Positions 2,305-36,555 of a stretch of DNA of 36,635 bases are shown piece by piece. The notes beneath the pieces are model-generated. The model made no database searches, was not told where the DNA came from, and saw nothing but the letters and a program-made list of their open reading frames with translations. The stretch lies in assembly GCA_045543505.1 (NCBI GenBank), contig JAZQMR010000037.1:1-36635 (forward strand), in the 5' to 3' direction. The position numbers and the translations under genes are program-made. Origin of the DNA: Acutalibacteraceae bacterium (GTDB lineage Bacteria > Bacillota > Clostridia > Oscillospirales > Acutalibacteraceae). Positions within the stretch are counted from its first letter, which is position 1. Every line of letters starts with the position of its first letter.

Positions 2305-4200
2305 TTGGAAAACAAAAAAATGGTTCGCAATTTGCTTTTTTACATCGGTATTCCGATTTTGTTGATCGTTTTTATCTTGACGCTTTTTGGCTCTAGGGCG
2401 CAGAAAGATGAGGTCTACTCGGACATCGTCAAGTACTTTCAGGATCAGCAGGTCACCGAGTACAGCATGAACCTTGGCACTGGCCAGATGAAGCTGAAAC
2501 TCAAGGACGACAAGGAAATAAACTTTACGGCGCCGAGTGTGGGTTGGATTCGCGAGGACATTAAGCCCTACATCGCGGAGTACAACGAGAATCATCCGGA
2601 CGCGCAGATGAAACAAGACTTGATTCGCGCGAGCGAGAATTCGTGGTGGAGCTCGGTCATCATCGATGTGCTGATGTTCGTCGGAATCGGCCTAATTTGG
2701 TGGCTGATTATGCGCAAGGCGATGTCTGGCTTCGGCGAGGGCGGCAAGACCATGACCTTCGGCAAGGCTAAGATTAAAAATATGTCCGACGAAAAGCGCA
2801 AAACGACCTTTGCGGACGTGGCCGGCGCGGACGAGGAAAAAGAAGAGCTCGCGGAGTTGGTTGAGTTCCTAAAGAACCCTGCGAAGTACAACGATCTAGG
2901 CGCGAGAATCCCTAAAGGTGTACTCTTGGTGGGCCCTCCCGGCACCGGTAAGACGCTACTTGCAAGGGCCGTTGCCGGAGAGGCGGGCGTGCCGTTTTTC
3001 TCCATTTCCGGATCGGACTTCGTTGAGATGTTCGTCGGTGTGGGCGCCTCGAGGGTGCGCGACCTCTTTGACCAGGCCAAGAAGAATTCGCCGTGCATTG
3101 TCTTCATCGATGAGATTGACGCGGTAGGTCGTCAAAGAGGTGCCGGCCTCGGTGGTGGCCACGACGAGCGCGAGCAGACCTTGAATCAGTTGCTCGTCGA
3201 GATGGATGGTTTCGGCGCCAACGAAGGCGTAATTATGATTGCGGCCACCAACCGCCCGGACGTCTTAGATCCAGCTCTTATGAGGCCGGGACGTTTCGAT
3301 AGACAAGTTCTGGTGGGCTATCCAGATATAAAGGGCCGCGAGGACATCCTTAAGGTGCACTCCAAAGGTAAGCCGTTGGCGCCAGACGTTGTGCTCAACA
3401 CCATCGCGAAGTCGACTGCAGGCTTTACTGGCGCCGACCTTGAGAACCTTCTGAATGAAGCGGCACTTCTGGCAGCTAGGAAAAATCTCAAGGCTCTCAC
3501 GATGGCCGAGATTGAAGAGGCGACGATTAAGGTTGTGGTGGGCACGGAGAAAAAGTCGCGCGTGATGAGCGACAAGGAAAAGACTCTCACGGCTTATCAC
3601 GAGGCCGGCCACGCGATTGTGACGTACTTTTGCAAGACGCAGGACGCCGTGCATCAAATCTCGATTATCCCTCGAGGCATGGCTGGTGGTTATACGATGT
3701 CATTGCCATCTGAGGATCGCTCATATAAGTCTCGCTCCGAGATGAAAGAGTCAATTCAAGTGTTGCTTGGCGGCCGCGTCGCAGAAGACTTAATTATTGG
3801 CGACATCTCAACGGGTGCTTCAAACGACATCGAGCGTGCCACGAAAATTGCGAACTCGATGGTCACCAAGTACGGTATGAGCGAGGCGCTTGGCCCGATT
3901 GCTTACTCCGCCGAGAACGACGAGGTGTTCATTGGCCGCGACATTGGCCACATGAAGAACTACTCCGAGAAGATTGCCGCTGAGATCGATGCCGAGGTCA
4001 AAAATATTATCTCCGAGGGCTACGAGAACACCGAAAAGATCCTCAAGGAGAACATTGACAAGCTGCATGACGTAGCCAAGACGCTGTTCCTTAAGGAGAA
4101 AATGAACGCCGACGAGTTTAATCAAATCATGGAAGGCAAAAGCTCATCTGAGGCGCAAGAAAAATCAGGAGAAAGCCAAAAGGAAAATCCGGAGGCATAA
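2305..4200 (+). CDS. ftsH: ATP-dependent zinc metalloprotease FtsH
   Basis: Two N-terminal TM segments, Walker A GPPGTGKT, Walker [10 protein letters not shown], zinc motif HEAGH. TTG 2305 follows AAGGAGAGAG (2288-2297); ATG 2320 is an alternative start. Confidence 0.95.
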
Positions 4201-4205
4201 AATTA

Positions 4206-4238
4206 CCGCACCGAAAGTAACCGGTGCGGCTTTTTGTT
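4206..4238 (+). terminator. Intrinsic terminator after ftsH
   Basis: 8-bp stem CCGCACCG (4206-4213) / CGGTGCGG (4222-4229), 8-nt loop, then TTTTTGTT. Confidence 0.75.
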
Positions 4239-4704: not shown

Positions 4705-4725
4705 TTAATGTTTTTCTTAGACTTA

Positions 4726-4761
4726 CCGCACCGAACTTAATCGGTGCGGCTTCTTGTTTTT
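4726..4761 (+). terminator. Intrinsic terminator after the small ORF; near-duplicate of the ftsH terminator
   Basis: Stem CCGCACCG (4726-4733) / CGGTGCGG (4742-4749), then TTCTTGTTTTT. 4723-4759 matches 4203-4239 at 32 of 37 positions. Confidence 0.75.
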
Positions 4762-4770
4762 ATAATGTTT

Positions 4771-4864
4771 GGGAGTGCCCTATAGAAACATTTATGATAT
4801 ACCATCTCTATGAAATGTAAAGCATGCTAACAACGATACGAATCATATTCAAAGAGCGCCTCCC
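4771..4864 (+). mobile_element. Internally deleted remnant of the IS1-family element seen intact at 35790-36555
   Basis: 4771-4827 (GGGAGTGCCCTATAGAAACATTTATGATATACC...ATGAAATGTAAAGCATG) matches the left end and first 6 codons of the element at 35792-35848. AGAGCGCCTCCC at 4853-4864 resembles the right end AGGGCACTCCC. The right boundary is uncertain. Confidence 0.55.
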
Positions 4865-5014: not shown

Positions 5015-5935
5015 ATGCGAAAGATAAATGAACTTGCAAGTTTGACCGGAATGACCACGCGTGCGCTGCGCTACTACGACAAAATCGGCCTATTGAAGCC
5101 AGCGGAAATTTCAGAATCAGGGTACAGGCTCTATGACGATAAAGCCTTGGAAACTCTGCAGCAAATTTTATTCTTTCGAGAGCTTGATGTGCCGCTAAAG
5201 CAGATAAATGCCATCTTGGGAAGCCCGAATTTTGATAGACTATCGATGCTGAAGAAACATAAAAAGCTGATAACGCTCAAGCGCGACCGGCTGAACAATA
5301 TTTTGGCGTTGATTGAGAAAAACTTAAAGGGAGAGCACTATATGAGCTTCACAGAATTCGAAATGAAATCGATCGAAACCGCCTTTAGAGAAAGTATTGA
5401 AACCGTCACGGATGCTAAGTTTTGGGATTTTATAAAAGAAAAATTTAGTAGCAAAGAGGATATGATTGAAAAGTCGTTGAAGGCAATTCAAACTCAGCCA
5501 GAGATGATTTACAGCTATTTCGGCAGTGTTGACGGCTACGTAAAAGCCCTGAAAAAAGAGGCCGACAAGGAAAAACTCGCCGAAATTAAGAAAAACTGCG
5601 ACGAGATATACTTAAAGATAAGCCAAAATCAAGATAAATCCGTCTCGGATGAAACCGTTCAAAAGCTGGTAGATGACTTGCAAAAACTACATGAAAGCTT
5701 CTATGAGACGACTACAACTGGGATGATAAAGGATTTGAGTACCACGCTGCTGTGTGACGTTGATGCGATGAAAACCGAAATTAGCAGCACTTTAGTCGAA
5801 AAGGACATCGACGAGGCGGTAAGAAAAGCCGAGGCCAACTGTGCAAAGTTGATTGACCACTTTGATGGCAAGTTCGGTAAGGGCTCAGCCAGTTTTATCG
5901 GCGAAGCTATAAAGTATTATTTAACTCAAAGATAA
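5015..5935 (+). CDS. MerR-family transcriptional regulator, TipAL/Mta-like (306 aa)
   Basis: ATG 5015 follows AAGGAGG (5000-5006). N-terminal MerR HTH (INELASLTGMTTRALRYYDKIGLLKP...GYRLYDD) and a coiled-coil linker. The long C-terminal domain ends in a TipAS-like ...GKGSASFIGEAIKYY. Confidence 0.8.
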   Translation: MRKINELASLTGMTTRALRYYDKIGLLKPAEISESGYRLYDDKALETLQQILFFRELDVPLKQINAILGSPNFDRLSMLKKHKKLITLKRDRLNNILALIEKNLKGEHYMSFTEFEMKSIETAFRESIETVTDAKFWDFIKEKFSSKEDMIEKSLKAIQTQPEMIYSYFGSVDGYVKALKKEADKEKLAEIKKNCDEIYLKISQNQDKSVSDETVQKLVDDLQKLHESFYETTTTGMIKDLSTTLLCDVDAMKTEISSTLVEKDIDEAVRKAEANCAKLIDHFDGKFGKGSASFIGEAIKYYLTQR

Positions 5936-6040: not shown

Positions 6041-6397
6041 GTGGAATATGTGAAAGCGTTTGTCGTGGGAGGGCTGATTTGCGTGGCGGCGCAGGTGCTA
6101 ATCGATAAAACAAAGCTAACTCCCGCGAGGATCTTGGTATTGTTTGTTACACTTGGTGTAGCGCTGACAGGACTTGGCCTTTATGAGCCGTTAGTTGAGT
6201 TTGCGGGCGCCGGCGCAACGGTGCCTCTGACGGGGTTTGGCTACACCATGGCGAAAGGAACCCTCGAGGCGGTTAAAGAAAAGGGCCTCATCGGCGCCTT
6301 GACTGGAGGCCTAACTGCGGGATCAGCTGGAATCGCGGCGGCAGTGTTTTTTGGATATATCGCAGCGTTAGTCTCGAAGCCAAGCGACAAAAATTGA
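6041..6397 (+). CDS. spoVAE: Stage V sporulation protein AE (SpoVAEB type), 118 aa
   Basis: GTG 6041 lies 7 nt after AAGGAG (6028-6033). Strong resemblance to SpoVAEB: FVVGGLICV..Q.L.D..KLTPA...EFAGAGATVPLTGFG...LTAGSAGIAAAV. Confidence 0.85.
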   Translation: MEYVKAFVVGGLICVAAQVLIDKTKLTPARILVLFVTLGVALTGLGLYEPLVEFAGAGATVPLTGFGYTMAKGTLEAVKEKGLIGALTGGLTAGSAGIAAAVFFGYIAALVSKPSDKN

Positions 6398-6553
6398 TAA
6401 TTTCCAAAATTAACCTTGCCAAAAACCTGCATAAAAGGCAATTTAGCACAAATAATAACAATGAAGGCGTTGCTAAGATCACGTATATGGCGTAATTCTT
6501 ACGAATGGTAAAGATTAAATAAAGCAGTATTTTTTAAGCTTTTTACTATTTGC

Positions 6554-6732
6554 GGGAGTAACCTAAGCGAGCATCTGGCGATCGCGAGGCGCCGAAGGCC
6601 AGTAGGGCCTTCGGCCAGCCCAGCGCTCAACAACGTTGAGTGCTGGGCCACAAAGAAAATATTATTTTCTTTGGCCTCGCGGCCTGGTTGCGGCAGCTAC
6701 CCAAATGAAAAAAGCTTACTTCGGTCATCCCC
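6554..6732 (+). mobile_element. MITE copy 1 (179 bp, IS1-type terminal inverted repeats, three-hairpin core)
   Basis: 5' end GGGAGTAACCTAAGCGAGCAT. Core CGCGAGGC / hairpin CCGAAGGCC..GGCCTTCGG / hairpin CCCAGCGCTCAAC..GTTGAGTGCTGGG / hairpin CAAAGAAAAT..ATTTTCTTTG / GCCTCGCG. Degenerate 3' repeat ...GCTTACTTCGGTCATCCCC. Flanks CTATTTGC and TTATTTGT match at 6 of 8. Aligns end to end with the copies at 14930 and 32936. Confidence 0.75.
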
Positions 6733-6829
6733 TTATTTGTCTTTGATTGTCGTTGAGGTCCATATATGAACTATTAGCGCTGCCGCAGCGAAAATTTAAT
6801 TATGAAGAGAGTAAAATGGAGGTTTTATG

Positions 6830-7410: not shown

Positions 7411-8805
7411 TTAGCCACCTTGAATGAAAAAGCGCTGCACAAAATCAATAAGGTCTTGCCCGGACAAGCCAAAGCGATTCATTGCCCACTCAAGCATATT
7501 TTTAAGGCGAGGGTTGTTAAAGTTCAAGTTGCGCTGTTGGACACTTGCTTCTTGCGGTTCAGTTGTGTTGGAATTGAAGATTTGCTCCAAACCACTTGCT
7601 GCTCGCTCTGATGCTCGGTTAAAGTTGTCCTCTTCAATTGCAAAATCAATAGTGTCAACACGTGTTTCACGCATAAGAAACTCGTCGCCGTTGCGTGCAC
7701 ACACGGGTACTCTTGGCGCTACAGTGAGGCTATTTGCTGCTTGGACTGTCACATCACGCGTAGGTCTATCCTCAGTAAAACCTGAAAACTCTATATCACC
7801 GCCATCAATAATGCCCGCGCCAGTACCATCGTGTGTAAAAAGATTGGAAGAGGTCGAGTAAACTGTAGAACGCTCGCCTGCGTTAATTCTATTCGCACCC
7901 TCAGCCGTTATGGCCCCATCGCCATACACCCGCGTGTTACCATTGCCATCCACCTGCGTGCGACCGTTACCGACCACCTGCGTGTCACCGTCGCCGCGCA
8001 CCAGCGTACCACCATTGCCATCCACCCGCGTGTTACCATTGCCATCCACCTGCGTGCGACCGTTACCGACCACCCGCGTGTCACCAGCGCCTACCACATA
8101 CGTGAAACCGGCCCCGTTCACTCGCGTGTCACCATTGCCATCCACCCGCGTGCGACCGTTGCCATTCACCTGCGTGAAACCGTCGCCGCGCACCAGCGTA
8201 CCACCAGTGCCATCCACATGTGTGTTACCGTTGCCATTCACCCGCGTGCAACCGTTGCCATCCACCTGCGTGAAACCGTCGCCGAACACCCGCGTGACAC
8301 CATTGCCATCCACCCGTGTGTTACCGTTGCCATTCACCCGCGTGCGACCGTTGCCATCCACCTGCGTGAAACCGTCGCCGCACACCAGCGTACTACCAGT
8401 GCCATCCACCTGCGTGAAACCGTCGCCGCACACCAGCGTACTACCAGTGCCATCCACCTGTGTGTCACCGTTTCCTTTCACCCGCGTGTGACCGTTGCCA
8501 TTCACCTGCGTGGCACCGTTGCCGCGCACCAGCGTATCACCAGCACCATCCACTTGCGTGAAACCGTTGCCAGTCACCGTAGTTTCACCATCACCATACA
8601 CTTGCGTGAAACCGTCGCCAATAACATATGTGTCGTCGTTGTCGATGATCATGCGATCAGGTTGCGCACTAACAGTATTCGTGTAACTGCCATAAATTTG
8701 ACTCGATAATCCTACTGCCGCCACCAGCCCCAGTGCAACCAGCTTTTTAGCTGCGCTGTTGCAGACTGACCATATGTCCTCGTGAATGAACTTGTTTTTT
8801 TGCAT
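7411..8805 (-). CDS. Secreted octapeptide-repeat protein (predicted beta-solenoid), 464 aa, unknown function
   Basis: ATG at 8805 is preceded by GGGGGA. Signal peptide KKLVALGLVAAVGLSS...VSA|QP. Then 30 uninterrupted 8-residue repeats G-x-G-x-T-x-V-x, followed by a non-repetitive C-terminal domain of about 160 aa. The ORF-track start at 8862 adds 19 aa with no RBS. Confidence 0.75.
   Translation of the reverse strand: MQKNKFIHEDIWSVCNSAAKKLVALGLVAAVGLSSQIYGSYTNTVSAQPDRMIIDNDDTYVIGDGFTQVYGDGETTVTGNGFTQVDGAGDTLVRGNGATQVNGNGHTRVKGNGDTQVDGTGSTLVCGDGFTQVDGTGSTLVCGDGFTQVDGNGRTRVNGNGNTRVDGNGVTRVFGDGFTQVDGNGCTRVNGNGNTHVDGTGGTLVRGDGFTQVNGNGRTRVDGNGDTRVNGAGFTYVVGAGDTRVVGNGRTQVDGNGNTRVDGNGGTLVRGDGDTQVVGNGRTQVDGNGNTRVYGDGAITAEGANRINAGERSTVYSTSSNLFTHDGTGAGIIDGGDIEFSGFTEDRPTRDVTVQAANSLTVAPRVPVCARNGDEFLMRETRVDTIDFAIEEDNFNRASERAASGLEQIFNSNTTEPQEASVQQRNLNFNNPRLKNMLEWAMNRFGLSGQDLIDFVQRFFIQGG
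7900..8619 (-). repeat. Coding tandem repeat: 30 in-phase 24-bp units with 48-bp and 96-bp higher-order copies
   Basis: 24-nt periodicity over 720 nt with no indels. Exact 48-bp x2 tandem at 8354-8401 / 8402-8449. 7927-7989 matches 8023-8085 at 62 of 63 positions (96-nt offset). Confidence 0.9.
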
Positions 8806-8930
8806 GTATGCATTCCCCCTTTTTTGTTTAGTTTCAATATCGATGATATCACAAATCAACATCTAAGTCAAGCGTATTTTAAATCTTATGGCAAATATAT
8901 TTACAAAAGAAGATACCTAAGCTCAAGCAA

Positions 8931-9689
8931 GGAGAGTGTTTTCTAAAATAATCAAATGTGATATAGTAGGAAGAAAAGGGCGGTATAGATATGTACAAGT
9001 GCAAAAAGTGCGAATCAAACGAATACGTAAAAGCTGGCTTTGTAAAGGGTGAGCAGCGATACAAATGCAAGAAATGTGGCTGCCGATTTGTGCCAACAAG
9101 ACATAAAGGTAGAAGCAAACAAGAAAAGATTTTGGCAGTGTGGATGTACGCGCACGGTTTTTCATTTAGAACCATCGCCAAGTTTTTTAAGGTCAACGTT
9201 CATTCGTCGTTCGTTTGTTTGAGTGAAAGCTTTTGTAAAAAACAACTATTCTAAACCGGCTCCAATTGACGATAGCGTAGTGATTGAGCTCGACGAAATG
9301 TGGCATTTTTTATATTCAAAAAAAGGCAAGTTTGGATTTGGAAAGCTTATTTCCAAACCACAAAACAGCTCATCGATTGGGAGTGCGGAGCTCGAGATTC
9401 TGAAACGTTTAGAAAAATGTACGAGCGATAAAAAAGTGGAACTTAAAAGTATTCTTTAGCGATCGATACAGTGTTTATCGTAATTTTATACCACCGGAAC
9501 ATCCGATTCAAACAAAATTCGAAACACATTTAATTGAAAGCGACAATTTTTCTCAACGACGCTGGTTTGCAAGATTTAGACGAAAAACCTGCTGTGTTTC
9601 CCGCTCCCTCGACATGATTAATTTGACCATATTTATGAGGCCGTTCATGTCAATAAGTCTATCAGCACAGTTATTTGAGCAACGCTTCC
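8931..9689 (+). mobile_element. IS1-family element (second lineage), full length but frameshifted and defective
   Basis: Left end GGAGAGTGTTTTCTAAAATAA; right end TTATTTGAGCAACGCTTCC (9671-9689) is its imperfect inverse. Zinc-finger InsA-like ORF (MYKCKKCES...YKCKKCGCRF), then DDE pieces VIELDEMWHF... and ...RRKTCCVSRSL in different frames. Confidence 0.7.
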
Positions 9690-9916
9690 TTCAACGGTGT
9701 AAGTCTGGCTTTTGTTTTTTAGCGAAGTATGAGTGCCTTCATAGCATGCTTCTGAGTACGCCGAATATGCGCCAGAGTAGAATTGACGAGCCTTCACGGA
9801 CCGCTCAACTAAATGCTGAATCCGCTCTCGACTTTTATCGAAGGCTATGTCGAAGCCTACGATTTTCTGTGTATCTCTGCTTACCAACGTTTTTGCTCAA
9901 TGTCGGCGCGATATAG
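9690..9916 (-). mobile_element. Internal fragment of the IS1-family element seen intact at 35790-36555
   Basis: Minus-strand translation VSRDTQKIVGFDIAFDKSRERIQHLVERSVKARQFYSGAYSAYSEACYEGTHTSLKNKSQTYTVEG parallels residues encoded at 36150-36350. The DNA is visibly similar, with scattered substitutions. It abuts the right end of the preceding IS. Confidence 0.7.
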
Positions 9917-10231
9917 CTAAATTTTATTGACGACGCGCGCTAATCACCGAATTTCAAGCTAAATGTTTGCTGGCTGACCATGGTTATGACACTGACGCTA
10001 TCATCAGATGGGTGCTTCAAGCGGGAATGACACCTGTAATTCCTCCGAAGAAAAACCGCAACGCTCTGCGCAACTACGATAAACATATTTACAAGTTGAG
10101 ACATCTCGTCGAGAATGCATTTTTGCACCTCAAAAGATGGCGCGGTATAGCTACCCGTTACGCTAAAAATGTTGCATTGTTTGTCGCGGCAGTCTAAGTA
10201 TCGCTCTTTGGCTAAAAATTTATTGACGACA
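9917..10231 (+). mobile_element. IS5-family (IS427/IS1031-like) transposase C-terminal remnant
   Basis: LADHGYDTDAIIRWVLQAGMTPVIPPKKNR...YDKHIYKLRHLVENAFLHLKRWRGIATRYAK is the typical C-terminal DDE segment. The N-terminal two thirds are missing. Flanked by direct repeats AAATTTTATTGACGAC (9921) and AAAATTTATTGACGAC (10214). Confidence 0.7.
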
Positions 10232-13933: not shown

Positions 13934-13942
13934 GTGGCAAAA

Positions 13943-14923
13943 ATGGCAAAAGTTAGTGTGATTGTGCCGGTCTACAAGGTCGAGAAATATCTCGAGACCT
14001 GCGTGAAGTCCTTGTTGGAGCAGACGTTGACCGACATAGAGATAATTTTAGTGGACGATGGCTCGCCGGATGCGTGCGGTCAGATGTGCGATGACTTTGC
14101 AGAGAACGACCCTCGAGTGAAGGTAATTCACAAGGAAAACGGCGGTCTCAGCGATGCCCGAAATGCTGGCATAACCGCGGCGACAAGCCAATATATTGGT
14201 TTTGTGGACAGCGATGACTACGTCGCGCCCGACATGTACGCGACCCTCTACGGCGGCATCACGCGGCACGGCGCCGACGTGGCTATTTGCGGCCTTTATG
14301 ACTGCTATAAGACCAAGAAAATTCCGCAATTTGCTGGCAGTGAACGTTTAATCCTCGACAACGAAGAGGCCTTGGGGTTGGCGCTGGAGGGCATTAAATT
14401 TTCTGTCAACGCGGTGAACAAGCTCTATAAGAAGTCACTCTTCGACGAGATAAAATTCCCACAAGGCAAGCTCTCGGAAGATGCCTTCACGATTCCGCAA
14501 ATACTAGCGCGTGCGCGGACGGTGATCTTTGATTCGCGGCCGAAATATTTCTACGTGCATAGGGGAGAGAGCATCACGACGTCGGCCTTCAAGGCGCAGG
14601 ATTTCAACGTCGTCGAAGCGTACGAGCAGAATCTGCGGCTGGTCGAGGCGCGCTTCCCGGGGCTGCGGCGGCAGGCCGAGTTTCGGCTCTTGTGGGCGCA
14701 CATGTACGTGTTCGACAAGATGCTCATGAGCGAGAGTTTTACCGATGTTGAGAGCTACAAGCGAGTGTTGACGCAACTGCGACGGCAAACATTTAAGGTT
14801 TTGACGAACCCAATTTTCTCGCTAAAAAGAAAGGCCGTAAGCCTAATTTTGCTGGCAAGTCCAGGCCTTTATGCACGGCTGTTGCGCCGCCAAAAACAGA
14901 AAAATTTGGCGTTGCATGAGTGA
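13943..14923 (+). CDS. Family 2 glycosyltransferase
   Basis: KVSVIVPVYKVEKYLETCVKSLLEQT...EIILVDDGSPD...FVDSDD. ATG 13943 follows AGGTGG (13932-13937); GTG 13934 is an alternative. The stop TGA 14921-14923 lies in the MITE target duplication. Confidence 0.85.
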   Translation: MAKVSVIVPVYKVEKYLETCVKSLLEQTLTDIEIILVDDGSPDACGQMCDDFAENDPRVKVIHKENGGLSDARNAGITAATSQYIGFVDSDDYVAPDMYATLYGGITRHGADVAICGLYDCYKTKKIPQFAGSERLILDNEEALGLALEGIKFSVNAVNKLYKKSLFDEIKFPQGKLSEDAFTIPQILARARTVIFDSRPKYFYVHRGESITTSAFKAQDFNVVEAYEQNLRLVEARFPGLRRQAEFRLLWAHMYVFDKMLMSESFTDVESYKRVLTQLRRQTFKVLTNPIFSLKRKAVSLILLASPGLYARLLRRQKQKNLALHE

Positions 14924-14929
14924 CTATTT

Positions 14930-15107
14930 CGGGAATGCCCCAAGTGAGCATTTTCCATTGGCTTAGCTGCCAACCTGAGCCGCGAGGCCAAAGAAAATAT
15001 TATTTTCTTTGTGGCCCAGCGCTCAATGTGTTGAGCGCTGGGCTGGCCGAAGACCCACAGGGCCTTCGGCTCCTCGCGGCCGCTAGATGCGCGATTAGGG
15101 CACTACC
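14930..15107 (-). mobile_element. MITE copy 2 (inverted relative to copy 1), with a perfect 8-bp target-site duplication
   Basis: Ends GGGAATGCCCCAAGTGAGCAT (14931-) and ...ATGCGCGATTAGGGCACTACC (-15107). The core has the same three hairpins as the other copies. GACTATTT occurs at 14922-14929 and again at 15108-15115. Confidence 0.85.
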
Positions 15108-15138
15108 GACTATTTTTACAAGAAGGATTGTTTTTTAC

Positions 15139-16578
15139 GTGAGTTTGAAAAGATTTTTATTGAGAGAAGGAACGTACGAAGCCCTGCGCAAAGCCTACAT
15201 CACGGCCTTCATCGCGGCGGTTCTCACGCGAGTTTTGCTGCCGTTCGCCCTCTGCGAGACGCAATTTGTGAACTCGCTGGTTTTTGCCGTTGTGGCCATG
15301 TTTGGCGCGGCCGTTGTATGCCTGGATTTGTTCACGAGACGCGTTTTTCTTACGGCGAAAAATGTAGTCTGGTTGGCCTTGTTTTTAGCGATATGCACAC
15401 TTTCGAGCGTGGTGAACGCCAAGTACGGCGTCATCGGGAATGTTCGAAACTTGGTTTGGTTGGCGATATCGTTTTTTCTTTTGTATCCAATTGACCCGAC
15501 GAGAACGCTCGACAGCGTGAAAAAGGAGATTAAATACGTCGGCAACATCTTGATTACGGTGTGGTTTTTGGCTTGCGGTGCGTCGCTGGCGATGTTCGCA
15601 CTGCAGGTGGGCTATTACGTTGATGTTTATCCGGATTCATTCGCGCGCATGGGATTCATTGAGGGGCGACTTTTCGGCGTGTTTGAGGATCCAAACTATG
15701 CGGCAGTCGTTGCGATGATTGCGATTATTTACTCGATTTTCAACTTCAAAAATGCTAGAAAAAAGTGGTTAAAGGCGTTTTACGTTTGCGGCATTTGCGT
15801 AGATTTTTGCTACATAGTCTTGTCGGGCTCGCGTACAACAGAGGTTGCGGCGATTATTGTGGTATTTTTAGCCGCGTACTTTTTGCTATTAAAGAAATAT
15901 AACAAAGTGAAATCGAATGCCTTTATTAGGCAAGTTACACTGATTTTAACGGCAATCTTGTGCAGCGCGGCGCTGATCTTTAGCTTTATATTTGCAAGGA
16001 AGGCGCTGTCGTATTTGCCAGGGGTCGTTGGCGCGCCGTTTAAGTCGGTGAGCGTGGTGGAGCAAAAGCCTCGAAGGCACATCGACATCACGCGGGATGA
16101 CGTGAGCAACACGGCGGATATCTCGAATTGCAGGTTCAAAATTTGGCTGAGCGCGCTCGAGGTGTTTAAAAGCAAGCCGCTGCTGGGGACATCTCCACGA
16201 AACATGAGAGCATACGCGAAAGCGGCTTTCCCTAACGGCTTCATTGCTCAACGCTCTTACGCGGTCCACAATGCGTACCTCGATGTGCTAACCTCGACGG
16301 GGCTTTTGGGCGCCGTGGTAATGTTCATATTTTTGGTGAAATATTTGATAAGTGTATTTCAATTCCTCTTCGTCAATTTGAATAACAAAAATTATGGTTT
16401 AGTTTTATTCAGCTTTATAAACGTAGCAACAGTGGCGATCTCGGCGTTTTTCTTGTCGGAGATATTTTTTGTTAACACAATTGGCGTTTTAACGTTTTGG
16501 TTAAATTTAGGATACTCGCATTATTTTATTAAAGATGGCACAAACTCACAAAAGGCCAGTGATATCCTATGGAAATGA
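15139..16578 (+). CDS. wzy: O-antigen polymerase/ligase-family polytopic membrane protein (Wzy-like)
   Basis: About 10-12 TM segments and a Wzy_C-like region (LSGSRTTEVAAI...AVHNAYLDVLTSTGLLGAV). I set the start at GTG 15139, after AGAAGGA (15121-15127). The 73 aa that the ORF track adds upstream are a read-through of the MITE. Confidence 0.75.
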   Translation: MSLKRFLLREGTYEALRKAYITAFIAAVLTRVLLPFALCETQFVNSLVFAVVAMFGAAVVCLDLFTRRVFLTAKNVVWLALFLAICTLSSVVNAKYGVIGNVRNLVWLAISFFLLYPIDPTRTLDSVKKEIKYVGNILITVWFLACGASLAMFALQVGYYVDVYPDSFARMGFIEGRLFGVFEDPNYAAVVAMIAIIYSIFNFKNARKKWLKAFYVCGICVDFCYIVLSGSRTTEVAAIIVVFLAAYFLLLKKYNKVKSNAFIRQVTLILTAILCSAALIFSFIFARKALSYLPGVVGAPFKSVSVVEQKPRRHIDITRDDVSNTADISNCRFKIWLSALEVFKSKPLLGTSPRNMRAYAKAAFPNGFIAQRSYAVHNAYLDVLTSTGLLGAVVMFIFLVKYLISVFQFLFVNLNNKNYGLVLFSFINVATVAISAFFLSEIFFVNTIGVLTFWLNLGYSHYFIKDGTNSQKASDILWK

Positions 16579-17602: not shown

Positions 17603-19141
17603 ATGAGAACAAAAAATTCGATTATTAACACACTAGTGGGATTGGGTTCGTATGCGATTTTGCTGTTGGGACCGGTAGTTCTAAGCCCAATCGTAGCGAG
17701 CCTTGGCAGCGAAATTCTCGGCATACAAAAGACCTTTATGGATACGGTAGCGCTTTTGAATATAATCGAGCTGGGAATTAGCTTTGGCGTAATATACAAG
17801 CTGTACAAGCCGATTGCTGAGAATGACACCGAGAAAATCGCTATTCTGCTGAATTTTTACAAGAATACATTCAAAGTAATCGCTTCGATTTTATTGGCAT
17901 TGGGCTTATTGACGGCGATAATTATCCCGAAACTTGCACCTGCACACGACGCGAACAAATTTACTGATAGATGGCTCAGCGCGATGTTTTTGCTGTATTT
18001 GGCCGACACTTTGGCGACGTATCTGTTTGGCCACAAGCGCGCGATGCTGATTGCCGACCAGCGCAATTACCTGGTGAGTATTAGCAAAACCGGCTGCCAG
18101 CTGATGATGTTCATCTTGCAATTCGTTGCAGTGATGCACTTTCGGTCGTTCGAGTTGTATGTAATTGCGCGCTTGAGTTGCACCTTGCTCGACAGCATTT
18201 TGGTGCACACAATGTACAAAATTAGATATAAAAATATAGACCTACGGACGAAAAAAAAGCTCGAGAAAGGCGAGCGCGACGATTTATTTAGAAATTTGGG
18301 TGCGCTTTTCTACCACAAGATCGGCTACCAGAGCCTGGCATCGGGCTCGACGCTGATCATCACCAGCAACCTCGGCGAGGCGGTCACCGGCATGTACTAC
18401 CCGTACACGCTAATTACGAACGGCCTGATGAGCATCACCGACCAGGTTTTTAACGCGATTTTGACAAGTTTTGGCAACCTCCTCGTGAAGGCGACGCAAG
18501 GCCAAGTACATAACATTTACAAGAAAATTTTCTTCCTCAACCACGTAATTTACTCGTTTTTCTCGGTGTCGCTGTTCTGCCTCGTCGGGCCGTTCATCCG
18601 CCTGTGGATGGGCGACGCGTTCCTATTCCCGATGTCGACTCTGATTTTAATCGTGGTAAATTTCTACACATTCGGCATGAGAAAATCGATAACGATGGTA
18701 AAAAATAGCGCCGGACTTTATCGCCCAGACAGACATTTCGCGCTCATCGAGGCGGCCCTTAACATAGGTTTGGCGATGCTTTTAGTCGGAGACTTTGGCC
18801 TCAACGGTGTGCTTATCGCGAACATTATTAGCTCGCTGTGCATCCCCTTTTGGACCCAGCCCTACGTCGTTTACAAGAATGTTTTCAACCGATCCGTTGT
18901 TGACTATTACAAAAAGCACGCGATTTACGCCGCCATTACGCTGCTATCGACCGTTTTGACCTATTTTTTGTGTTCACTCTCAAGTGCAACTGGATTTATG
19001 AGGCTTATTTCAAACGGCCTGGTTTGCCTTGTTGTCCCGAACGCAATTAACGCGCTCATCTTCCGCAAGACCGACGAGTATCAGTACTTGCGCGGCATCG
19101 CGAGGAATGTATTTAAGCAGTTTAGGATGAGAAATAGTTAA
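17603..19141 (+). CDS. wzx: Polysaccharide flippase (MOP/Wzx family)
   Basis: 512 aa, about 12-14 TM segments; typical size and position for Wzx at the end of a Wzy-dependent locus. Confidence 0.75.
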   Translation: MRTKNSIINTLVGLGSYAILLLGPVVLSPIVASLGSEILGIQKTFMDTVALLNIIELGISFGVIYKLYKPIAENDTEKIAILLNFYKNTFKVIASILLALGLLTAIIIPKLAPAHDANKFTDRWLSAMFLLYLADTLATYLFGHKRAMLIADQRNYLVSISKTGCQLMMFILQFVAVMHFRSFELYVIARLSCTLLDSILVHTMYKIRYKNIDLRTKKKLEKGERDDLFRNLGALFYHKIGYQSLASGSTLIITSNLGEAVTGMYYPYTLITNGLMSITDQVFNAILTSFGNLLVKATQGQVHNIYKKIFFLNHVIYSFFSVSLFCLVGPFIRLWMGDAFLFPMSTLILIVVNFYTFGMRKSITMVKNSAGLYRPDRHFALIEAALNIGLAMLLVGDFGLNGVLIANIISSLCIPFWTQPYVVYKNVFNRSVVDYYKKHAIYAAITLLSTVLTYFLCSLSSATGFMRLISNGLVCLVVPNAINALIFRKTDEYQYLRGIARNVFKQFRMRNS

Positions 19142-19310
19142 AGATCAAGCCAGCTGGCGCCGCGAGGCGCAGAAGGCCCTACGGGCCTTCTGCCAACCCA
19201 GAGCGCAACTACGTTGGGCTCTGGGCTACAAAGAAAATAAAAATTTATTTTCTTTGTAGCCTCGCGGCCGCAGCTGGCTCAGCCAAAAGAAAGTTCTCCA
19301 TTAGGAGATT
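19132..19310 (+). mobile_element. MITE copy 3 (divergent subfamily; termini eroded, boundaries approximate)
   Basis: Same architecture as the other copies. Long outer stem GCCAGCTGGCGCCGCGAGGC / GCCTCGCGGCCGCAGCTGGC. Hairpins GCAGAAGGCCC..GGGCCTTCTGC, CCCAGAGCGCAAC..GTTGGGCTCTGGG and GCTACAAAGAAAATAAA..TTTATTTTCTTTGTAGC. Paired substitutions relative to copies 1, 2 and 4. Confidence 0.6.
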
Positions 19311-20360: not shown

Positions 20361-20420
20361 GCGGGGAGTGTCTTGTTTTTTGAGCTTGGCTTGTGCGAAC
20401 CCGAGGCCAAAGAAAATAAA
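20361..20420 (-). mobile_element. Truncated MITE copy 5 (one terminus plus the start of the core)
   Basis: GCGGGGAGTGTCTTG...TTGGCTTGTGCGAACCCGAGGCCAAAGAAAATA parallels 14931-14998 of copy 2 and stops inside the A/T hairpin. Confidence 0.5.
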
Positions 20421-20637
20421 TTTCGAAGAAAATGACTTGTTTAAAGCGATAAAATACGAGGTTATGTTTTTAGCATCAAAGTTAAATCAATTCTGCCCCA
20501 TCATTTGCTACTCATTGACTTCAGCGCTTTCGACTGTTACTTCCGCAGTAAATTCAAGGGGAAGCCAAAATTTTTTTCCATCTGGTAATTTCAATGGTGC
20601 ACAGTATCAGTAAAATTTGGTGGATTAATTTAAAATC

Positions 20638-21345
20638 GCAATTGCTAAATTTTCATATATCCGATGCGATCTCTATGCATAAACAGCAGTAGAGAGTGTT
20701 TATGCATCTGCAAATTCTTTGAATAGCAGTAGGTTTTTCGGACAAACCTCGTAAGATAGTGGCGCAAAAGCCGGTTCATACGCTCAACGGTGGGCATATG
20801 CGCTTTTCCAGTGAGATGTTTTGTGGGGGCGATGAGATTGCATGCCAATGGTTCGATGTGTAAAAATTTGCATCAATATGGCTAATTTTATTCGCGAGTT
20901 TTTTGGAAGTGTTTTGTTTCTCGAGTGCCAACAAGCCGCTTTGTGTCGCGGTCTACTGATGTCCAGAGCCAGATGTTTTTTTAAATTTACGCACAACTCA
21001 TCGAGCTCCCAAAATATCGACTTTTTCGTCTTTTTTAGGAACTTTCTCTAATTCAACGCCGGCTTTTTTTACCCAGTTTATGACAGAAACATGGCTGACT
21101 TTAAGAATTCTTTCGATTCTCCTAAAGCCATTTCCTTCCAAATACAACTGTATTGCTTTTCGTCTGATATGCTCCAGGTAGCCGCGTTGTCCTACCGTGT
21201 AGTGACATCCACATTTTTTGCATAGATATCGCTGTTTTTGGTTGTTGAATCCGCTTTTTACTCGTTTTTCGCTCCCGCATTTCGGGCATTTAAGTTCTTT
21301 ATCCATACACTCATTTTAAACTATATATCGGTTTTTAGCAATGTC
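20638..21345 (-). mobile_element. IS1-family element (third lineage), both ends present, transposase frameshifted
   Basis: Ends GCAATTGCTAAATTTTCAT (20638-) and the reverse complement of TTAGCAATGTC (-21345). InsA-like ORF 20998-21306 (CPKCGSEKRV...YLCKKCGCHY plus HTH). DDE pieces (...DELCV..., ...VERMNRLLRHYLTRFVRKTYCYSK...) lie in other frames. Confidence 0.75.
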
Positions 21346-21559
21346 TTAAATTTTATTGACAACACTCGCTAATCGCCGAATTTCAAGCTGAATATTTGAT
21401 GGCCGACCGTGGTTATGACTATGATAAGCACCCCTATAAACTTCGTCATCTTGTTAAAAATGCATTTTTGCACCTTAAGAAATGGCGCGGTATAGCCGCT
21501 CGTTACGTAAAAATGTTGCATCTTTTGTCGCGTCAGTTCAAATTAGATGCATCGCTATA
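21346..21559 (+). mobile_element. Second, internally deleted copy of the IS5-family remnant
   Basis: Starts with the same TAAATTTTATTGACAAC...CGAATTTCAAGCTGAATATTTGATGGCCGACCGTGGTTATGAC as 9918-. It lacks the middle part and resumes at ...YKLRHLVKNAFLHLKKWRGIAARY. Confidence 0.65.
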
Positions 21560-22164
21560 TGTGTGAGCGAAAAACGAGTAAAAAGCAGATCCAAAAAACA
21601 AAAAACAGCGGTGTTTGGTAAAAATTGTGGTCAACTATACAGTGGGATAGCGCGGTTACCCGGAAAATATAATATGAAAAGCAATATAGTTGCATTTGGA
21701 AGGAAAGGGTTTTAGAAGAAATGAAAAAAGCTTAAAGTTAGCCACGCTTCTGTGACGAATCTGCCAAAAAGCGGACACGAAACCCACAAAAAGATCCCAA
21801 AAGACGAAAAAGTCGATGTTTTGGCGCTAGATGAGTTGTGTGTACATAAAAAACATCTGGCTCTGGACATCAGTAGACCGCGACACAAAGCGGCTTGTTG
21901 GATTTTACGTCGGAATTCAAGGAACAAAATTAGTCATATTGGCGCAAAGTTTTATGCATCAGACCATTGGCAGGCCTACAATCTCATCGCCCCCACAAAA
22001 CATCTCTCTGGAAAAGCACACACACCGTCGACTTATGAATAACTACCTCGCGAGATTTGCCCGAAAAAACTATTGCTATTCGAAGAGCCTGCAGATAATT
22101 AAGTGCTCTCTTTTGCTATTTATGCATAGGGATTTTATTGGATGCATGAAAACTTAGCAATGCC
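21560..22164 (+). mobile_element. 5'-truncated, heavily decayed copy of the IS at 20638-21345, in opposite orientation
   Basis: Starts at the equivalent of InsA codon ~10 (GAGCGAAAAACGAGTAAAAAGC). Shows the same DELCV...LALDISRPRHKAACW string as the other copy (out-of-frame reading of both) and ...YLARFARKNYCYSKSL. Right end GGATGCATGAAAACTTAGCAATGCC (-22164). Confidence 0.65.
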
Positions 22165-31948: not shown

Positions 31949-32891
31949 ACTCCGTTTTTTTCTTCAGGTTTATACCGCTTTTCACAACATATTGCGGGGC
32001 ATTATTTAAGTTAATAAAAATCCGGCCTACGTACTCACCTATCATACCAATAACCATCAGCGTTAAACCGCTAAAAAATGTCAACAGTGAAACAATGCTA
32101 CTATAGCCGATAGCAATATCAGGCGTAACAAACAGCTTATTTATAACAGTATACAAGCCAAAAATAAACCCAATAAAAGCAAATATTACGCCGGCGATGG
32201 ATGTAATTCTCAGCGGCTTTACCGAAAAAGACGTGAAACCATTGAGCCAAAGGGCTAAAAGCTTCTTTAAGCTATAATTGCTCTTTCCCTCCTGACGCTC
32301 ATTCTCTTCCATCTTAACGTTCGCGATATTAGAGGTTGTCCTTAGCAACAAGCCAGCTATATACGGATAACAATTTTGATATTTTATCATCTCGTCAACG
32401 ACAAACCTCTTAATAGCACCAAAATTGCTAAGGCTTAATCTTTTGGGTTTGCCTATCAAGTGCTCAGCCATTATGTCATTCACTTTGCTGCCAAAGTTCT
32501 TAAAACGAGACTGCTTTTTTATGCCATAGTCAGCAATTGAAACATCAAAACCGTTCCTTAGCGGCCCTATCAAATCAAAAACCTTTTCAGCAGGACATTG
32601 CCCGTCATCATCAAGATATATAACGATATCTCCGCTGGAGTAGCGAAATCCCGCCATCAACGCTGCGTGTTGGCCAAAGTTTTTTGCAAAATTTATAGCA
32701 ATTATATTTTCATCACATCGCGCTAACTGCTCTATCACAAGGCTTGTCCCATCCTTAGAAAAATCATTGACCAGAATAATCTCATAGCTAAAGTTTTCAT
32801 CGCTAGCAACTGCCGTTTTTATCGAGTTAACCACATCAGTTATGGTCTTTTCGGAGTTATAACACGGTATGACAAACGATAATTTGCTCAC
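31908..32891 (-). CDS. Polyprenyl-phosphate glycosyltransferase, GT2, ArnC/GtrB/CsbB type
   Basis: KLSFVIPCYNSEKTI...ILVNDFSKDGT...YLDDDGQ, plus two C-terminal TM helices (ITSIAGVIFAFIGFIFGLY, IVSLLTFFSGLTLMVIGMIGEY). The 327-aa size is typical of this subfamily. GTG start at 32891. Confidence 0.8.
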   Translation of the reverse strand: MSKLSFVIPCYNSEKTITDVVNSIKTAVASDENFSYEIILVNDFSKDGTSLVIEQLARCDENIIAINFAKNFGQHAALMAGFRYSSGDIVIYLDDDGQCPAEKVFDLIGPLRNGFDVSIADYGIKKQSRFKNFGSKVNDIMAEHLIGKPKRLSLSNFGAIKRFVVDEMIKYQNCYPYIAGLLLRTTSNIANVKMEENERQEGKSNYSLKKLLALWLNGFTSFSVKPLRITSIAGVIFAFIGFIFGLYTVINKLFVTPDIAIGYSSIVSLLTFFSGLTLMVIGMIGEYVGRIFINLNNAPQYVVKSGINLKKKTECDESNDEKKIFFN

Positions 32892-32935
32892 AATAGCCCA
32901 TCCAATCTTATTTGATAAAAAATCTTGAATTTTGC

Positions 32936-33114
32936 GGGAGTCCCCTAAGCGAGCATCTGGCAGCCGCGAGGCGCCGAATGCCCGCAGGGCCTTCGGCCAG
33001 CCCAGCGCTCAACTTTGTTGAGCGCTGGGCCACAAAGAAAATAATATTTTCTTTGGCCTCGCGGCCCGGCTGCAGCAGCTAATTCAAGTGGGAATGCTCA
33101 CTTAGGGCACTTCT
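32936..33114 (+). mobile_element. MITE copy 4, perfect 8-bp target duplication, inserted into the 3' end of the aminotransferase gene
   Basis: Ends GGGAGTCCCCTAAGCGAGCAT and ATGCTCACTTAGGGCACTTCT. The core is nearly identical to copy 1. AATTTTGC occurs at 32928-32935 and again at 33115-33122. Confidence 0.85.
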
Positions 33115-34224
33115 AATTTTGCTAATTATAAACTCCACATCCGAAGGTTTTATGCCGTAGTAAAGTGGCAACCTTATGATACGTTCGCTTTCTTTGGTCG
33201 TAAATTTATCTTCGCCGTTAAACCTACAATATTTCAGGCCTGCAGGCGCAGAATGAAGTGGAATATAATGGAAAACTGCACATATTCCATTGTCCTTCAA
33301 GTAAGAAAGCAGCCTCGTGCGAACATCAAGATGTTGCACTTTAATGTAAAACATGTGTGCGTTATGAAGGCAACCTTCTGGGATGAAAGGCAGCTCTAAA
33401 AGGCCTGCCTCCGCCAAACTCTTTAGTCCCTCGTAATATAATTTCCAGGTTGCCATACGATTATCATAAATTTTCTCAGCCATCTCGAGTTGCGCCCACA
33501 AGCAAGCCGCATTTATGTCGCTCGGCAAGTATGAAGAGCCTTTATTTACCCAGGTATATTTGTCAACTTGACCTCTAAAGAACTTGCTCCGATCCGTACC
33601 CTTTTCCCGGATTATCTCGGCCAACTCAGCGTCCTTTTGGTCTTTTAAGAGGAGCGCTCCCCCCTCGCCCATGCTATAATTTTTTGTCTCATGGAAGCTG
33701 TAGCACCCATAGTCGCCAATTGTCCCGAGCGCTTGCCCCTTATAGTAACTCATTACACCTTGAGCGGCATCCTCAACTACTTTTAAGTTGTATTTTTGAG
33801 CGAGCTCCATTATTTTATTCATCTCGCACGACACACCCGCATAATGGACTGGCACGATAGCCTTTGTTTTCGGAGTTATCGCGGCTTCAATTAGATTCTC
33901 ATCGATGTTCATGGTATCAGGCCTAATGTCAACAAAAACGACCCTTGCGCCGCGCAGCACAAAGGCATTTGCCGTGGACACAAAAGTATACGACGGCATT
34001 ATCACTTCATCGCCCGGCTGTATGTCGCACAACATAGCTGCCATTTCCAGCGCGCTCGTGCAAGAAGTGGTCAACAGCGCTCTTGTCGCACCGGTTTTCT
34101 CCTCAAACCAACGGTTACATAGTTTTGTAAATTCTCCGTCACCGCAAACTTTCTTATTGTCGTAGGCCTTTTTTATATAGTCCAGTTCAGTGCCAATAAA
34201 GGGTGGTTCATTAAAGTTAATCAT
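33079..34224 (-). CDS. wecE: dTDP-4-keto-6-deoxyhexose 4-aminotransferase, DegT/WecE family
   Basis: Collinear with E. coli WecE almost throughout (FNEPPFIGTELDY...CGDGEFT...IQPGDEVIMPSYTFVSTANAFVLRGA..VFVDIRPDTMNIDE...VPVHYAGV.CEM...FHETKNY...IREKGT.RS.FFRGQVDKYTW...NAHMFYIK...FHYIPLH..PAG...TTKESER..RLPL). The last 11 codons and the stop lie inside the MITE. Confidence 0.9.
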   Translation of the reverse strand: MINFNEPPFIGTELDYIKKAYDNKKVCGDGEFTKLCNRWFEEKTGATRALLTTSCTSALEMAAMLCDIQPGDEVIMPSYTFVSTANAFVLRGARVVFVDIRPDTMNIDENLIEAAITPKTKAIVPVHYAGVSCEMNKIMELAQKYNLKVVEDAAQGVMSYYKGQALGTIGDYGCYSFHETKNYSMGEGGALLLKDQKDAELAEIIREKGTDRSKFFRGQVDKYTWVNKGSSYLPSDINAACLWAQLEMAEKIYDNRMATWKLYYEGLKSLAEAGLLELPFIPEGCLHNAHMFYIKVQHLDVRTRLLSYLKDNGICAVFHYIPLHSAPAGLKYCRFNGEDKFTTKESERIIRLPLYYGIKPSDVEFIISKIRSALSEHSHLN

Positions 34225-35789: not shown

Positions 35790-36555
35790 TAGGGAGTGCC
35801 CTATAGAAGCATTTGTGATATACTAGATTTATGAAATGTAAAGCATGTAATGACGAAACAAAACAAATAAAAACTGGAAAAACAAAGGCGGGAACCAAAA
35901 AGTACAAATGCAAAAAATGCGGAAAATATTACACCCAGGAAAGCAAAAAGAGAGGCCATAGCGAAGAAACAAAGAATCAGGCGATAAAATTATATTTGGA
36001 GGGAAATAGTAGCCGAGCAGTCGGCCGAATTCTGGGAATATGGAAAAATATTGAGCCCAAAGAGACTCTAAATGCGCGGGTTAACGTCATCTAAATGGAC
36101 GAGCTCTATAGTTTCGTCGAGAGAAAAAAAAGATTTTACGCGATAACGCTGGTCAGTAGAGATACACGGGAAATCGTAGGTTTTGACATAGCTTTCGACA
36201 AAAGTCGAGAGCGAATTCAGCGCTTAGTTGATCGTTACGTGAAGGCGTGTCAGTACTACTCTGACGCTTATTCGGCGTATTCAGAAGTGTGCTATGAAGG
36301 CGCTCATACTTCGCTAAAAAATAAAAGTCAAACTTACACCGTTGAAGGTGTAAACTTTGACTTGCGACACTACATTCCTTCTTTACGCCGAAAATCCAAA
36401 TGCTTTTTTCGATCACTTGAAACAGCTAAAGCTGTCTTCAAAATTTTTGTTAAAGCCTTCAATCTATTTGCTCGTGCTAAAAAGAATTTTCCTCACCTGA
36501 AATCTGCTTTTTGTCTCTCGAGTTTTATTTAAATGCTCAACCAGGGCACTCCCTA
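35790..36555 (+). mobile_element. IS1-family insertion sequence with both inverted repeats present
   Basis: TAGGGAGTGCCCT at 35790-35802 and its inverse AGGGCACTCCCTA at 36543-36555. 766 bp, coding for a zinc-finger/HTH domain plus an IS1-type DDE domain. No flanking target duplication. Confidence 0.85.
35831..36532 (+). pseudogene. IS1-family transposase interrupted by one in-frame TAA (36092-36094)
   Basis: ORFs 35831-36094 and 36095-36532 are in the same frame (both coordinates are 2 mod 3). ...NARVNVI*MDELYSF aligns with ...SVVIELDEMWHF of the IS at 8931, so the stop sits where a Glu codon (GAA) is expected. Confidence 0.75.

Follow-up and report, generated by a model that had tools for sequence, protein, structure and literature searches.

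By the ISfinder definition, members of the IS1 family of insertion sequences (ISs) are 740-1180 bp long, carry GGnnnTG ends and generate direct repeats of 8-9 bp (PMC10425158 table 8; PMC6807381). Here we describe a repeat of ~178 bp with ends of this type that occurs several times in a 36,635-nucleotide stretch of DNA from an Acutalibacteraceae bacterium (contig JAZQMR010000037.1, assembly GCA_045543505.1), denoted here the window. The repeat is very probably a non-autonomous DNA transposon (MITE, for miniature inverted-repeat transposable element) that has the terminal inverted repeats of a single-ORF (open reading frame) IS1-family element residing in the same genomes. It has the GGnnnTG ends, the 8-bp duplication and the AT-rich-looking targets of the IS1 family, and its partner elements of 766-800 bp encode a transposase that has a zinc finger, a helix-turn-helix and a DDE domain and passes the NCBIfam model NF033558. 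It differs from the family in being non-coding and in carrying a structured core of 102-114 nt between its tips, and the partner copies found here are mostly pseudogenes.

The closest analogue for the structural behaviour of the repeat appears to be bcr1 of the Bacillus cereus group, a transcribed element of ~155 bp with 5-bp direct repeats (Okstad 2004 and Klevan 2007, as summarised in PMC3184786). As far as that summary describes it, bcr1 resembles the present element in being an interspersed Bacillota repeat of ~155-180 bp with strain-variable positions, flanking direct repeats and a compensated cruciform-like fold, whereas its direct repeats are of 5 bp, compared with 8 bp and clear IS1-type tips here, and it has two hairpins, compared with a closing stem and three hairpins here. 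REP/REPIN elements, which are mobilised by RAYT proteins, share with our repeat GC-rich extragenic palindromes, high copy number and covarying hairpins, but they lack the IS-type terminal inverted repeats and the target duplications that are both present here together with clean empty sites. To our knowledge, neither REP/REPIN elements nor derivatives of IS200/IS605 generate target duplications, and we know of no parent IS identified for bcr1. The Correia/NEMIS elements of Neisseria and MITEAba12 (PMC6382973) are likewise short, intergenic and of high copy number, with terminal inverted repeats and target duplications, and they too can sit within operons and fold in transcripts; their parent families, duplication lengths and host phyla are different, and MITEAba12 folds weakly (~-24 to -27 kcal/mol, PMC6382973) compared with -93 to -112 kcal/mol here. 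In the literature searched we found no description of MITEs in Acutalibacteraceae or of an element like this one, and the family is apparently undescribed. It is an ordinary kind of element, with an unusually well-conserved folded core.

The repeat inserts as a unit and duplicates 8 bp of its target

The window encodes SpoVT, SpoVAC and two polysaccharide gene clusters, as identified by Pfam scans of selected ORFs. Four full-length copies of the repeat, which align end to end and measure 177-179 bp (family units are 177-190 bp), and one truncated copy are present, in agreement with the preliminary description of this DNA. The unit has no ORF confined to it and hence no coding capacity. Copy 2 (178 bp, positions 14930-15107, minus strand, inverted relative to the family consensus) is located in a polysaccharide operon, between a GT2 glycosyltransferase gene (13934-14923, plus strand) directly 5' of it and a gene encoding a wzy-type polymerase (Wzy_C; 15139-16578, plus strand) 3' of it. 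The site of copy 2 was compared with the contigs that encode GT2 homologues of 98%, 97% and 81% identity. In every one of these contigs ~27 nt separate the GT2 stop from the wzy start. The relatives carry an empty site, ...GCATGAGT GACTATTT TTACAAG..., in which the octamer is present once (L078-L081), whereas the window reads octamer, 178 bp, octamer, the left duplication being at 14922-14929 and the right one at 15108-15115. A BLAST comparison of the window with a relative at this site placed the breakpoints at 14929 and 15108, with an 8-bp overlap in the relative.

Copy 1 (6554-6732, plus strand) is located between a spoVAC-like gene and spoVT and is flanked by CTATTTGC (6546-6553) and TTATTTGT (6733-6740). 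Its empty site was found in two loci encoding a 99%-identical SpoVT (L094/L095); there a single CTATTTGT takes the place of the two octamers and the element, and the spacer between spoVAC and spoVT is shorter by 187 bp, that is 179 + 8. Each duplication copy has one mismatch and each tip of copy 1 has 2-3 (6546-6565 and 6719-6740), and the flanks of copy 1 show only about a dozen differences from the empty-site relative in ~250 aligned positions. These mismatches point either to a source copy that was itself variant or to an unusually high mutation rate of the ends.

Copy 4 (32936-33114, plus strand) is flanked by AATTTTGC on both sides (32928-32935 and 33115-33122). Thus, the perfect 8-bp duplications that the preliminary description had reported for copies 2 and 4 are indeed there; its picture of termini and duplications does not extend to copy 3 (19132-19310, plus strand), which has degenerate ends and no recognisable duplication. 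At the site of copy 3, relatives with the 81%-identical GT2 (L091/L092) have no element, and the convergent genes are 22 nt apart, compared with 206 nt in the window. The truncated copy (~20361-20423, minus strand) is a half copy that runs from one tip (GGGGAGTGTC) through one arm to the 3' arm of hairpin 3 (see below).

Two metagenome-assembled genomes (MAGs) of Acutalibacteraceae relatives, JAZQJR01 (~94% DNA identity to the window across the operon) and JAZQHA01 (~72-75%), extended the comparison. JAZQHA01 has an independent insertion of the MITE in the spacer of copy 3, across a terminator hairpin from the site used in the window. In JAZQJR01 (L090, 14930-15460) only the first ~20 nt of copy 3 are left, after which the sequence diverges at a rearrangement. 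The alignment suggests that the flank of the operon was rearranged between the window and JAZQJR01 with a breakpoint inside the repeat; the pseudouridine synthase gene is found in JAZQJR01 on the opposite side of the operon. Comparing the two MAGs with each other, we found a copy facing a contiguous empty site at four loci (L012/L037, L055/L007, L048/L077 and L016/L068), and most of the copies that could be compared between them are lineage-specific.

The flanking octamers of 31 full-length copies with both flanks available were compared at a fixed offset. In 13 of these copies at least 6 of 8 positions are identical, five of them perfectly, whereas random pairings reach this level in 1.3% of cases. 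The target octamers, both the verified and the well-matched ones, look AT-rich by eye. Together these data demonstrate that the repeat, which has IS1-type tips, inserts as a unit into intergenic DNA with duplication of 8 bp, and that it has done so recently. Judged from these alignments, the family has been very recently active in the lineage of the window: copies 1 and 2 inserted once this lineage had separated from relatives with 94-98% DNA identity.

The family is abundant in two relatives

Exact look-ups of the GT2 and SpoVT proteins of the window gave no record in the protein-indexed collections, and copy number was judged from the MAGs JAZQJR01 and JAZQHA01. One genome per species was scanned with a 21-nt core pattern, yielding at least 77 loci, nearly all of them from these two MAGs, and the loci were then searched with a profile. 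The strong unique copies detected in this way number at least 80 for JAZQJR01 (310 kb sampled) and at least 34 for JAZQHA01 (134 kb sampled), at least 114 in all. With the window included, 118 of 119 strong copies lie outside ORFs. The observations on which the preliminary description had made a mobile element depend therefore fall on its side: further copies are plentiful, duplications are found well above the random level, and orthologous positions are not always occupied, as seen at the sites of copies 1, 2 and 3.

No match to the family was found in viral contigs, plasmids or phages. A search of JGI metagenomes with an independent 20-mer of the core returned 46 loci, all 46 being chance matches in unrelated GC-rich DNA. 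A true copy (profile score 76) is present at 1301-1414 of L031, a 2.5-kb contig binned with a Bacteroidales MAG from cattle rectum; the contig is probably a mis-binned piece of an Acutalibacteraceae relative. Many MAG and metagenome contigs start or end inside a copy (L003, L015, L017, L035, L045-L047, L057, L060, L069, L071, L073, L091 and L100), and the family is thus a cause of fragmentation when these organisms are assembled from short reads.

Copy 2 separates two genes of the polysaccharide operon without disrupting them

The GT2 stop codon is the TGA at 14921-14923, the last two nucleotides of which overlap the left duplication of copy 2, and the true start of wzy is the GTG at 15139, its product being of 477-479 amino acids (aa) in relatives. 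These coordinates place copy 2 downstream of the GT2 stop and upstream of the ribosome-binding site of wzy, as had been noted previously. The ORF that opens at 14920 reads through copy 2 and gives wzy a spurious N-terminal extension of exactly 73 codons, also as noted. Copy 2 spared both ORFs and the ribosome-binding site, and all downstream ORFs are intact. The gap between GT2 and wzy is 215 nt and strongly folding in the window, whereas it is ~27 nt without copy 2. The strong secondary structure previously attributed to copy 2 is supported by its predicted RNA fold (-93.1 kcal/mol, z = -7.25); the predicted fold of copy 4 is stronger (-112 kcal/mol, z = -9.6). A terminator scan around copy 2 found no canonical terminator in or after it.

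Two other copies form the 3' ends of ORFs. Copy 3 contributes the final two codons and the stop codon of a 512-aa ORF, which ends in MRNS* in the window and in MRKW* in L091 (window positions 19132-19141). An ORF for a DegT-family aminotransferase (33079-34224, minus strand) owes its final 11 codons (RSALSEHSHLN) and its stop codon to copy 4. When copy 4 and one duplication are removed, the DegT ORF has no stop and runs in frame into the downstream GT2 gene starting at 32891. As read from the sequence, this would reflect either an ancestral gene fusion or a 1-nt change after insertion in the A6 run at ~32917-32922.

The tips of the repeat are those of an IS1-family element

The 12-nt tip GGGAGTGCCCTA, with up to two mismatches allowed, occurs nine times in the window (1.26 expected), a number reached by none of 100 shuffles. 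Eight of the nine sites coincide with an end of either a repeat copy or an IS1 element, and the ninth (5329-5340, two mismatches) belongs to neither. Scoring of GGGAGTGCCCTA and TAGGGCACTCCC tips for orientation gave 28 left and 30 right tips oriented correctly, versus 0 and 1 oriented wrongly.

The element at 35790-36555 (plus strand; delimited here as 35792-36553), which carries the 12-nt tips of the MITE, had been described as an IS1-family element whose ends match those of the repeat at 17-18 of 21 positions. Direct comparison gave the same identity and the family assignment stands; the element itself is a pseudogene, in which a TAA (36092-36094) replaces a conserved GAA and 12 codons are missing, corresponding to a deletion of ~36 bp relative to copies of 800 bp. 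The partner IS is 766 bp long in the window and ~800 bp in L072, L073 and L075, within the IS1 range. Its consensus ends are GGGAGTGCCCTATAGAAGCATTTA (left) and GGGAGTGCCCTAGTTGAGCATTTA (right). MITE tips and the ends of these 766-800-bp elements are identical at 12 of 12 nt; read inward, the commonest MITE subfamily has GGGAGTGCCCTAAGTGAGCATTT as its right end, which matches the right end of the IS at 21 of 23 positions. Furthermore, the positions common to both IS ends are those conserved in the MITE. The shared tip GGGAGTG fits the GGnnnTG signature.

The protein encoded by the partner IS matches Pfam PF03400 (DDE_Tnp_IS1) with 27.5 bits (cut-off 24.1) and, once the in-frame stop of the window copy is repaired, NF033558 with 112.6 bits (cut-off 100); the transposase alignment shows conservation of the D, D and E columns. 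The window itself yielded no intact transposase gene. Gut metagenomes contain intact relatives of 241-245 aa (79% and 73% identity), and the contig of one of these has the tip GGGCACTCCC at its right end. The empty sites, the 8-bp duplications, the shared tips and the match to an IS1-family transposase support the earlier proposal of a non-autonomous element with IS1-type ends, and we infer from these sequences that the IS1-family transposase would mobilise the repeat in trans.

Other remnants of the partner IS in the window are a solo left end (4771-4826, plus strand; repeat family D8) comprising the left inverted repeat and the first codons, and an internal fragment of the transposase gene (9687-9908, minus strand; inverted repeat I1). 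Nested transposition is seen in L049 (6093-7078), where a MITE copy (6157-6332) with GTCATTA on both sides is located within a partner-type IS1 copy.

A folded core is better conserved than the arms and tips

The anatomy of the repeat was derived from an alignment of 97 copies, in which outer tips, variable arms (~27 nt left, ~49 nt right), a closing stem, three hairpins and 2-nt linkers can be distinguished. The core of 102-114 nt consists of the closing stem (GCCGCGAGGC with GCCTCGCGGC) enclosing hairpins H1 (GCCGAAGGCCC, loop, GGGCCTTCGGC), H2 (a variable stem of 9-10 bp topped by CAAC, a loop of ~3-4 nt, GTTG) and H3 (CAAAGAAAATA, loop, TATTTTCTTTG). In copy 2, the core occupies 14979-15080 on the minus strand (repeat families D7, I7 and I8), its closing stem pairing 14979-14988 with 15071-15080 and enclosing the AT-rich H3 (14989-15011), the variable H2 (15014-15043) and the GC-rich H1 (15046-15070). 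The core is not present in the partner IS. Complementarity between the inner arms of a copy is statistically detectable but tiny (-10.2 versus -9.4 kcal/mol).

Across the alignment, 97.1% of core cells are paired, compared with 35-49% when the partners are slid. Changes on both sides are seen in 23 of 44 core pairs (11 of 14 in H2); a single position can show as many as four alternative pair types, and none of 500 shuffles reached the observed values of pairing and covariation. The closing stem, H1 and H3 are nearly invariant in sequence, whereas H2 is hypervariable (62 distinct 10-mers among 86 copies) and yet 95% paired. Nearest-neighbour copies differ by ~0% in the stems of the closing stem, H1 and H3, by 10-30% in the H2 stem and by 20-50% in arms and loops.

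Copies 1 and 2, compared directly in the aligned sequences, have nearly identical cores, arms that are only ~70% identical and tips with 1-3 mismatches. As these two copies are young, their differences in arms and tips must have pre-existed among source copies competent for transposition; by the same token, a near-identical core despite ~30% difference in the arms indicates that the constraint on the core acts in lineages that are still transposing. Together with the 2-3 tip mismatches tolerated by copies that moved and the maintained pairing of H2, this led us to a tentative explanation: the core may be a sequence- and structure-specific cis element, acting as folded DNA or RNA, that is needed for mobilisation or is bound by a dedicated protein of the host or the transposon. 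We also examined a guide hypothesis, in which H2 matches flanking or target DNA; the longest common substring was 5.05 on average, versus 4.93 ± 0.08 for shuffled pairings, which is not significant, and the hypothesis was rejected.

A somewhat less probable explanation is that the invariant core is an artefact of concerted evolution, in which gene conversion homogenises the long GC-rich core while the arms drift, the core being needed by neither transposition nor the host. The core stems, near-identical even where arms differ by 20-50%, are in line with conversion, and copies do recombine, as the rearrangement of L090 relative to the window indicates. The pair L050/L015, a possibly orthologous pair from the two MAGs and the only candidate that a search for orthologous copies in diverged genomes brought up, is also of the kind that wholesale core replacement would yield: its arms are unalignable, its closing stem, H1 and H3 are identical, and its H2 sequences are wholly different, each being self-complementary. 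The pair lacks one flank, which leaves its orthology unproven, and it is compatible both with constraint that acted after insertion and with gene conversion that replaced the core. However, H2 is located in the middle of the core, where simple homogenisation should erase the diversity that is observed, and conversion leaves the 95% pairing of H2 unexplained.

We consider it improbable that the repeat is primarily a structured RNA selected by the host, such as an mRNA stabiliser, attenuator, terminator or small RNA, that is kept locus by locus with mobility being incidental. Such a role would be consistent with the very stable predicted folds (z = -7 to -10), the strong covariation of the core and its retention between two species whose genes are only ~75% identical, and bcr1 offers a precedent, being described in the summary cited above as transcribed and as keeping its cruciform-like fold by compensatory changes (PMC3184786). 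Against this, copies between co-oriented genes are oriented along transcription in 24 cases and opposite to it in 23, and mismatches of the G·U type number 43 on the aligned strand and 32 on the opposite strand (A·C), a difference that is not significant and favours neither strand as RNA. The absence of both an orientation bias and a G·U asymmetry argues against a strand-specific RNA role. In addition, the presence of the repeat varies among near-identical relatives at three window sites, Rfam 15 gave no match in the window at gathering thresholds (best sub-threshold E = 0.064), and copy 2 has no canonical terminator in it or beside it.

Other repeats and IS remnants in the window

A second, different IS1-family element is located at 8934-9690 and contains a zinc-finger/helix-turn-helix ORF followed by an ORF with a DEMW motif. 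It is 80-84% identical to copies in JAZQJR01, and its left tip, GGAGAGTGTTT, differs from the MITE tip, to which it is nevertheless related. This element abuts the fragment of the first-type IS1 at 9687-9908, which is followed by a possible fragment of another transposase gene (9918-10196), so that the stretch 8934-10196 forms an IS graveyard just upstream of the operon. Adjoining the half copy of the MITE is a large imperfect palindrome (20641-22161) with several inverted-repeat pairs, one of 54 nt at 100% identity; it is made of IS-like sequence matching an IS1-type N-terminus and the repeat at 9918-10196. Just upstream of the solo IS1 end, a pair of terminator-like hairpins of 41 nt (4198-4238 and 4718-4758, 85% identical, ACCGCACCG...CGGTGCGGCTTTTTGTT) brackets an ORF of 144 aa. 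Finally, ~27 tandem units of 24 nt, which encode 8-residue repeats and show higher-order periodicity at 48 and 96 nt, are found at 7921-8572, inside an ORF of 483 aa (7411-8862, minus strand) that matches the C-terminal trimerisation (beta-helix) domain of phage T4 gp5.

Discussion

The repeat has the features of a bacterial MITE, as it is short, lacks a transposase ORF, has terminal inverted repeats and a fixed 8-bp duplication, occurs in dispersed polymorphic copies and shares its ends with an IS. In the mechanism we propose, an IS1-family DDE transposase, supplied in trans, would bind the GGGAGTGCCCTA...AGCAT tips and insert the unit of ~178 bp into AT-rich intergenic DNA through cuts staggered by 8 bp, and repair of the gaps would yield the 8-bp duplications. 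Copies that have no duplications may have arisen by recombination or by intramolecular events, consistent with the rearranged operon flank seen between the window and JAZQJR01. The core, folding as a four-way junction, would act as a cis module aiding spread; as an extrudable junction, a hinge or a platform for protein binding, it could bring together both ends of an element of only ~180 bp.

Several observations weigh against this reading. The partner IS is dead in the window, and all of its copies that were checked in the sampled MAG loci are likewise interrupted or incomplete: the ORFs in L072, L073 and L075 are broken by stops and frameshifts, and the other MAG matches are fragments. The best transposase protein of the MAGs (P0121) has no zinc finger. 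The partner IS copies themselves show no duplications, nor do several MITE copies with perfect tips. Only in 20 of 91 cores (~22%) are both tips within one mismatch, so that the tips seem less constrained than the core, which is odd for a purely tip-driven MITE. The main sample was collected by a 21-nt pattern lying inside the core (part of H3 and of the closing stem), although the profile of conservation is the same in the 37 copies without this pattern. Lastly, aiding spread in cis is the most likely role of the core, but one that is inferred.

GGnnnTG ends with 8-bp duplications are also found in the IS6/IS26 family (PMC6807381), and a structure-recognising enzyme would be expected to leave a core better conserved than the tips, but mobilisation by other machinery, be it an IS6/IS26 transposase or a REP/RAYT or IS200/IS605-type HUH enzyme reading the hairpins, is very improbable, given that, among full-length elements, the 12-nt tips were found only on ones that encode IS1-family transposases, that the 8-bp duplications and empty sites seen here have no counterpart known to us in REP/REPIN elements or IS200/IS605 derivatives, and that no RAYT or IS6 gene was found by Pfam scans among 20 selected window ORFs.

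The IS1-type MITE described here provides a natural data set on the cis requirements of a very short DDE-mobilised element, with more than 100 copies, verified young insertions and a covarying core. If the core is indeed a cis element, an internal structured module would matter to a DDE-type MITE no less than its terminal repeats do, and should the core prove necessary for mobilisation, the usual view that MITEs need only terminal repeats would change. For the organisms themselves, such elements break MAG assemblies, create spurious ORF extensions and mark strain-level differences. The window records a currently or very recently active MITE in the uncultured gut family Acutalibacteraceae, with insertions in surface-polysaccharide operons and at the 3' ends of genes, where C-termini are rewritten and stop codons supplied.

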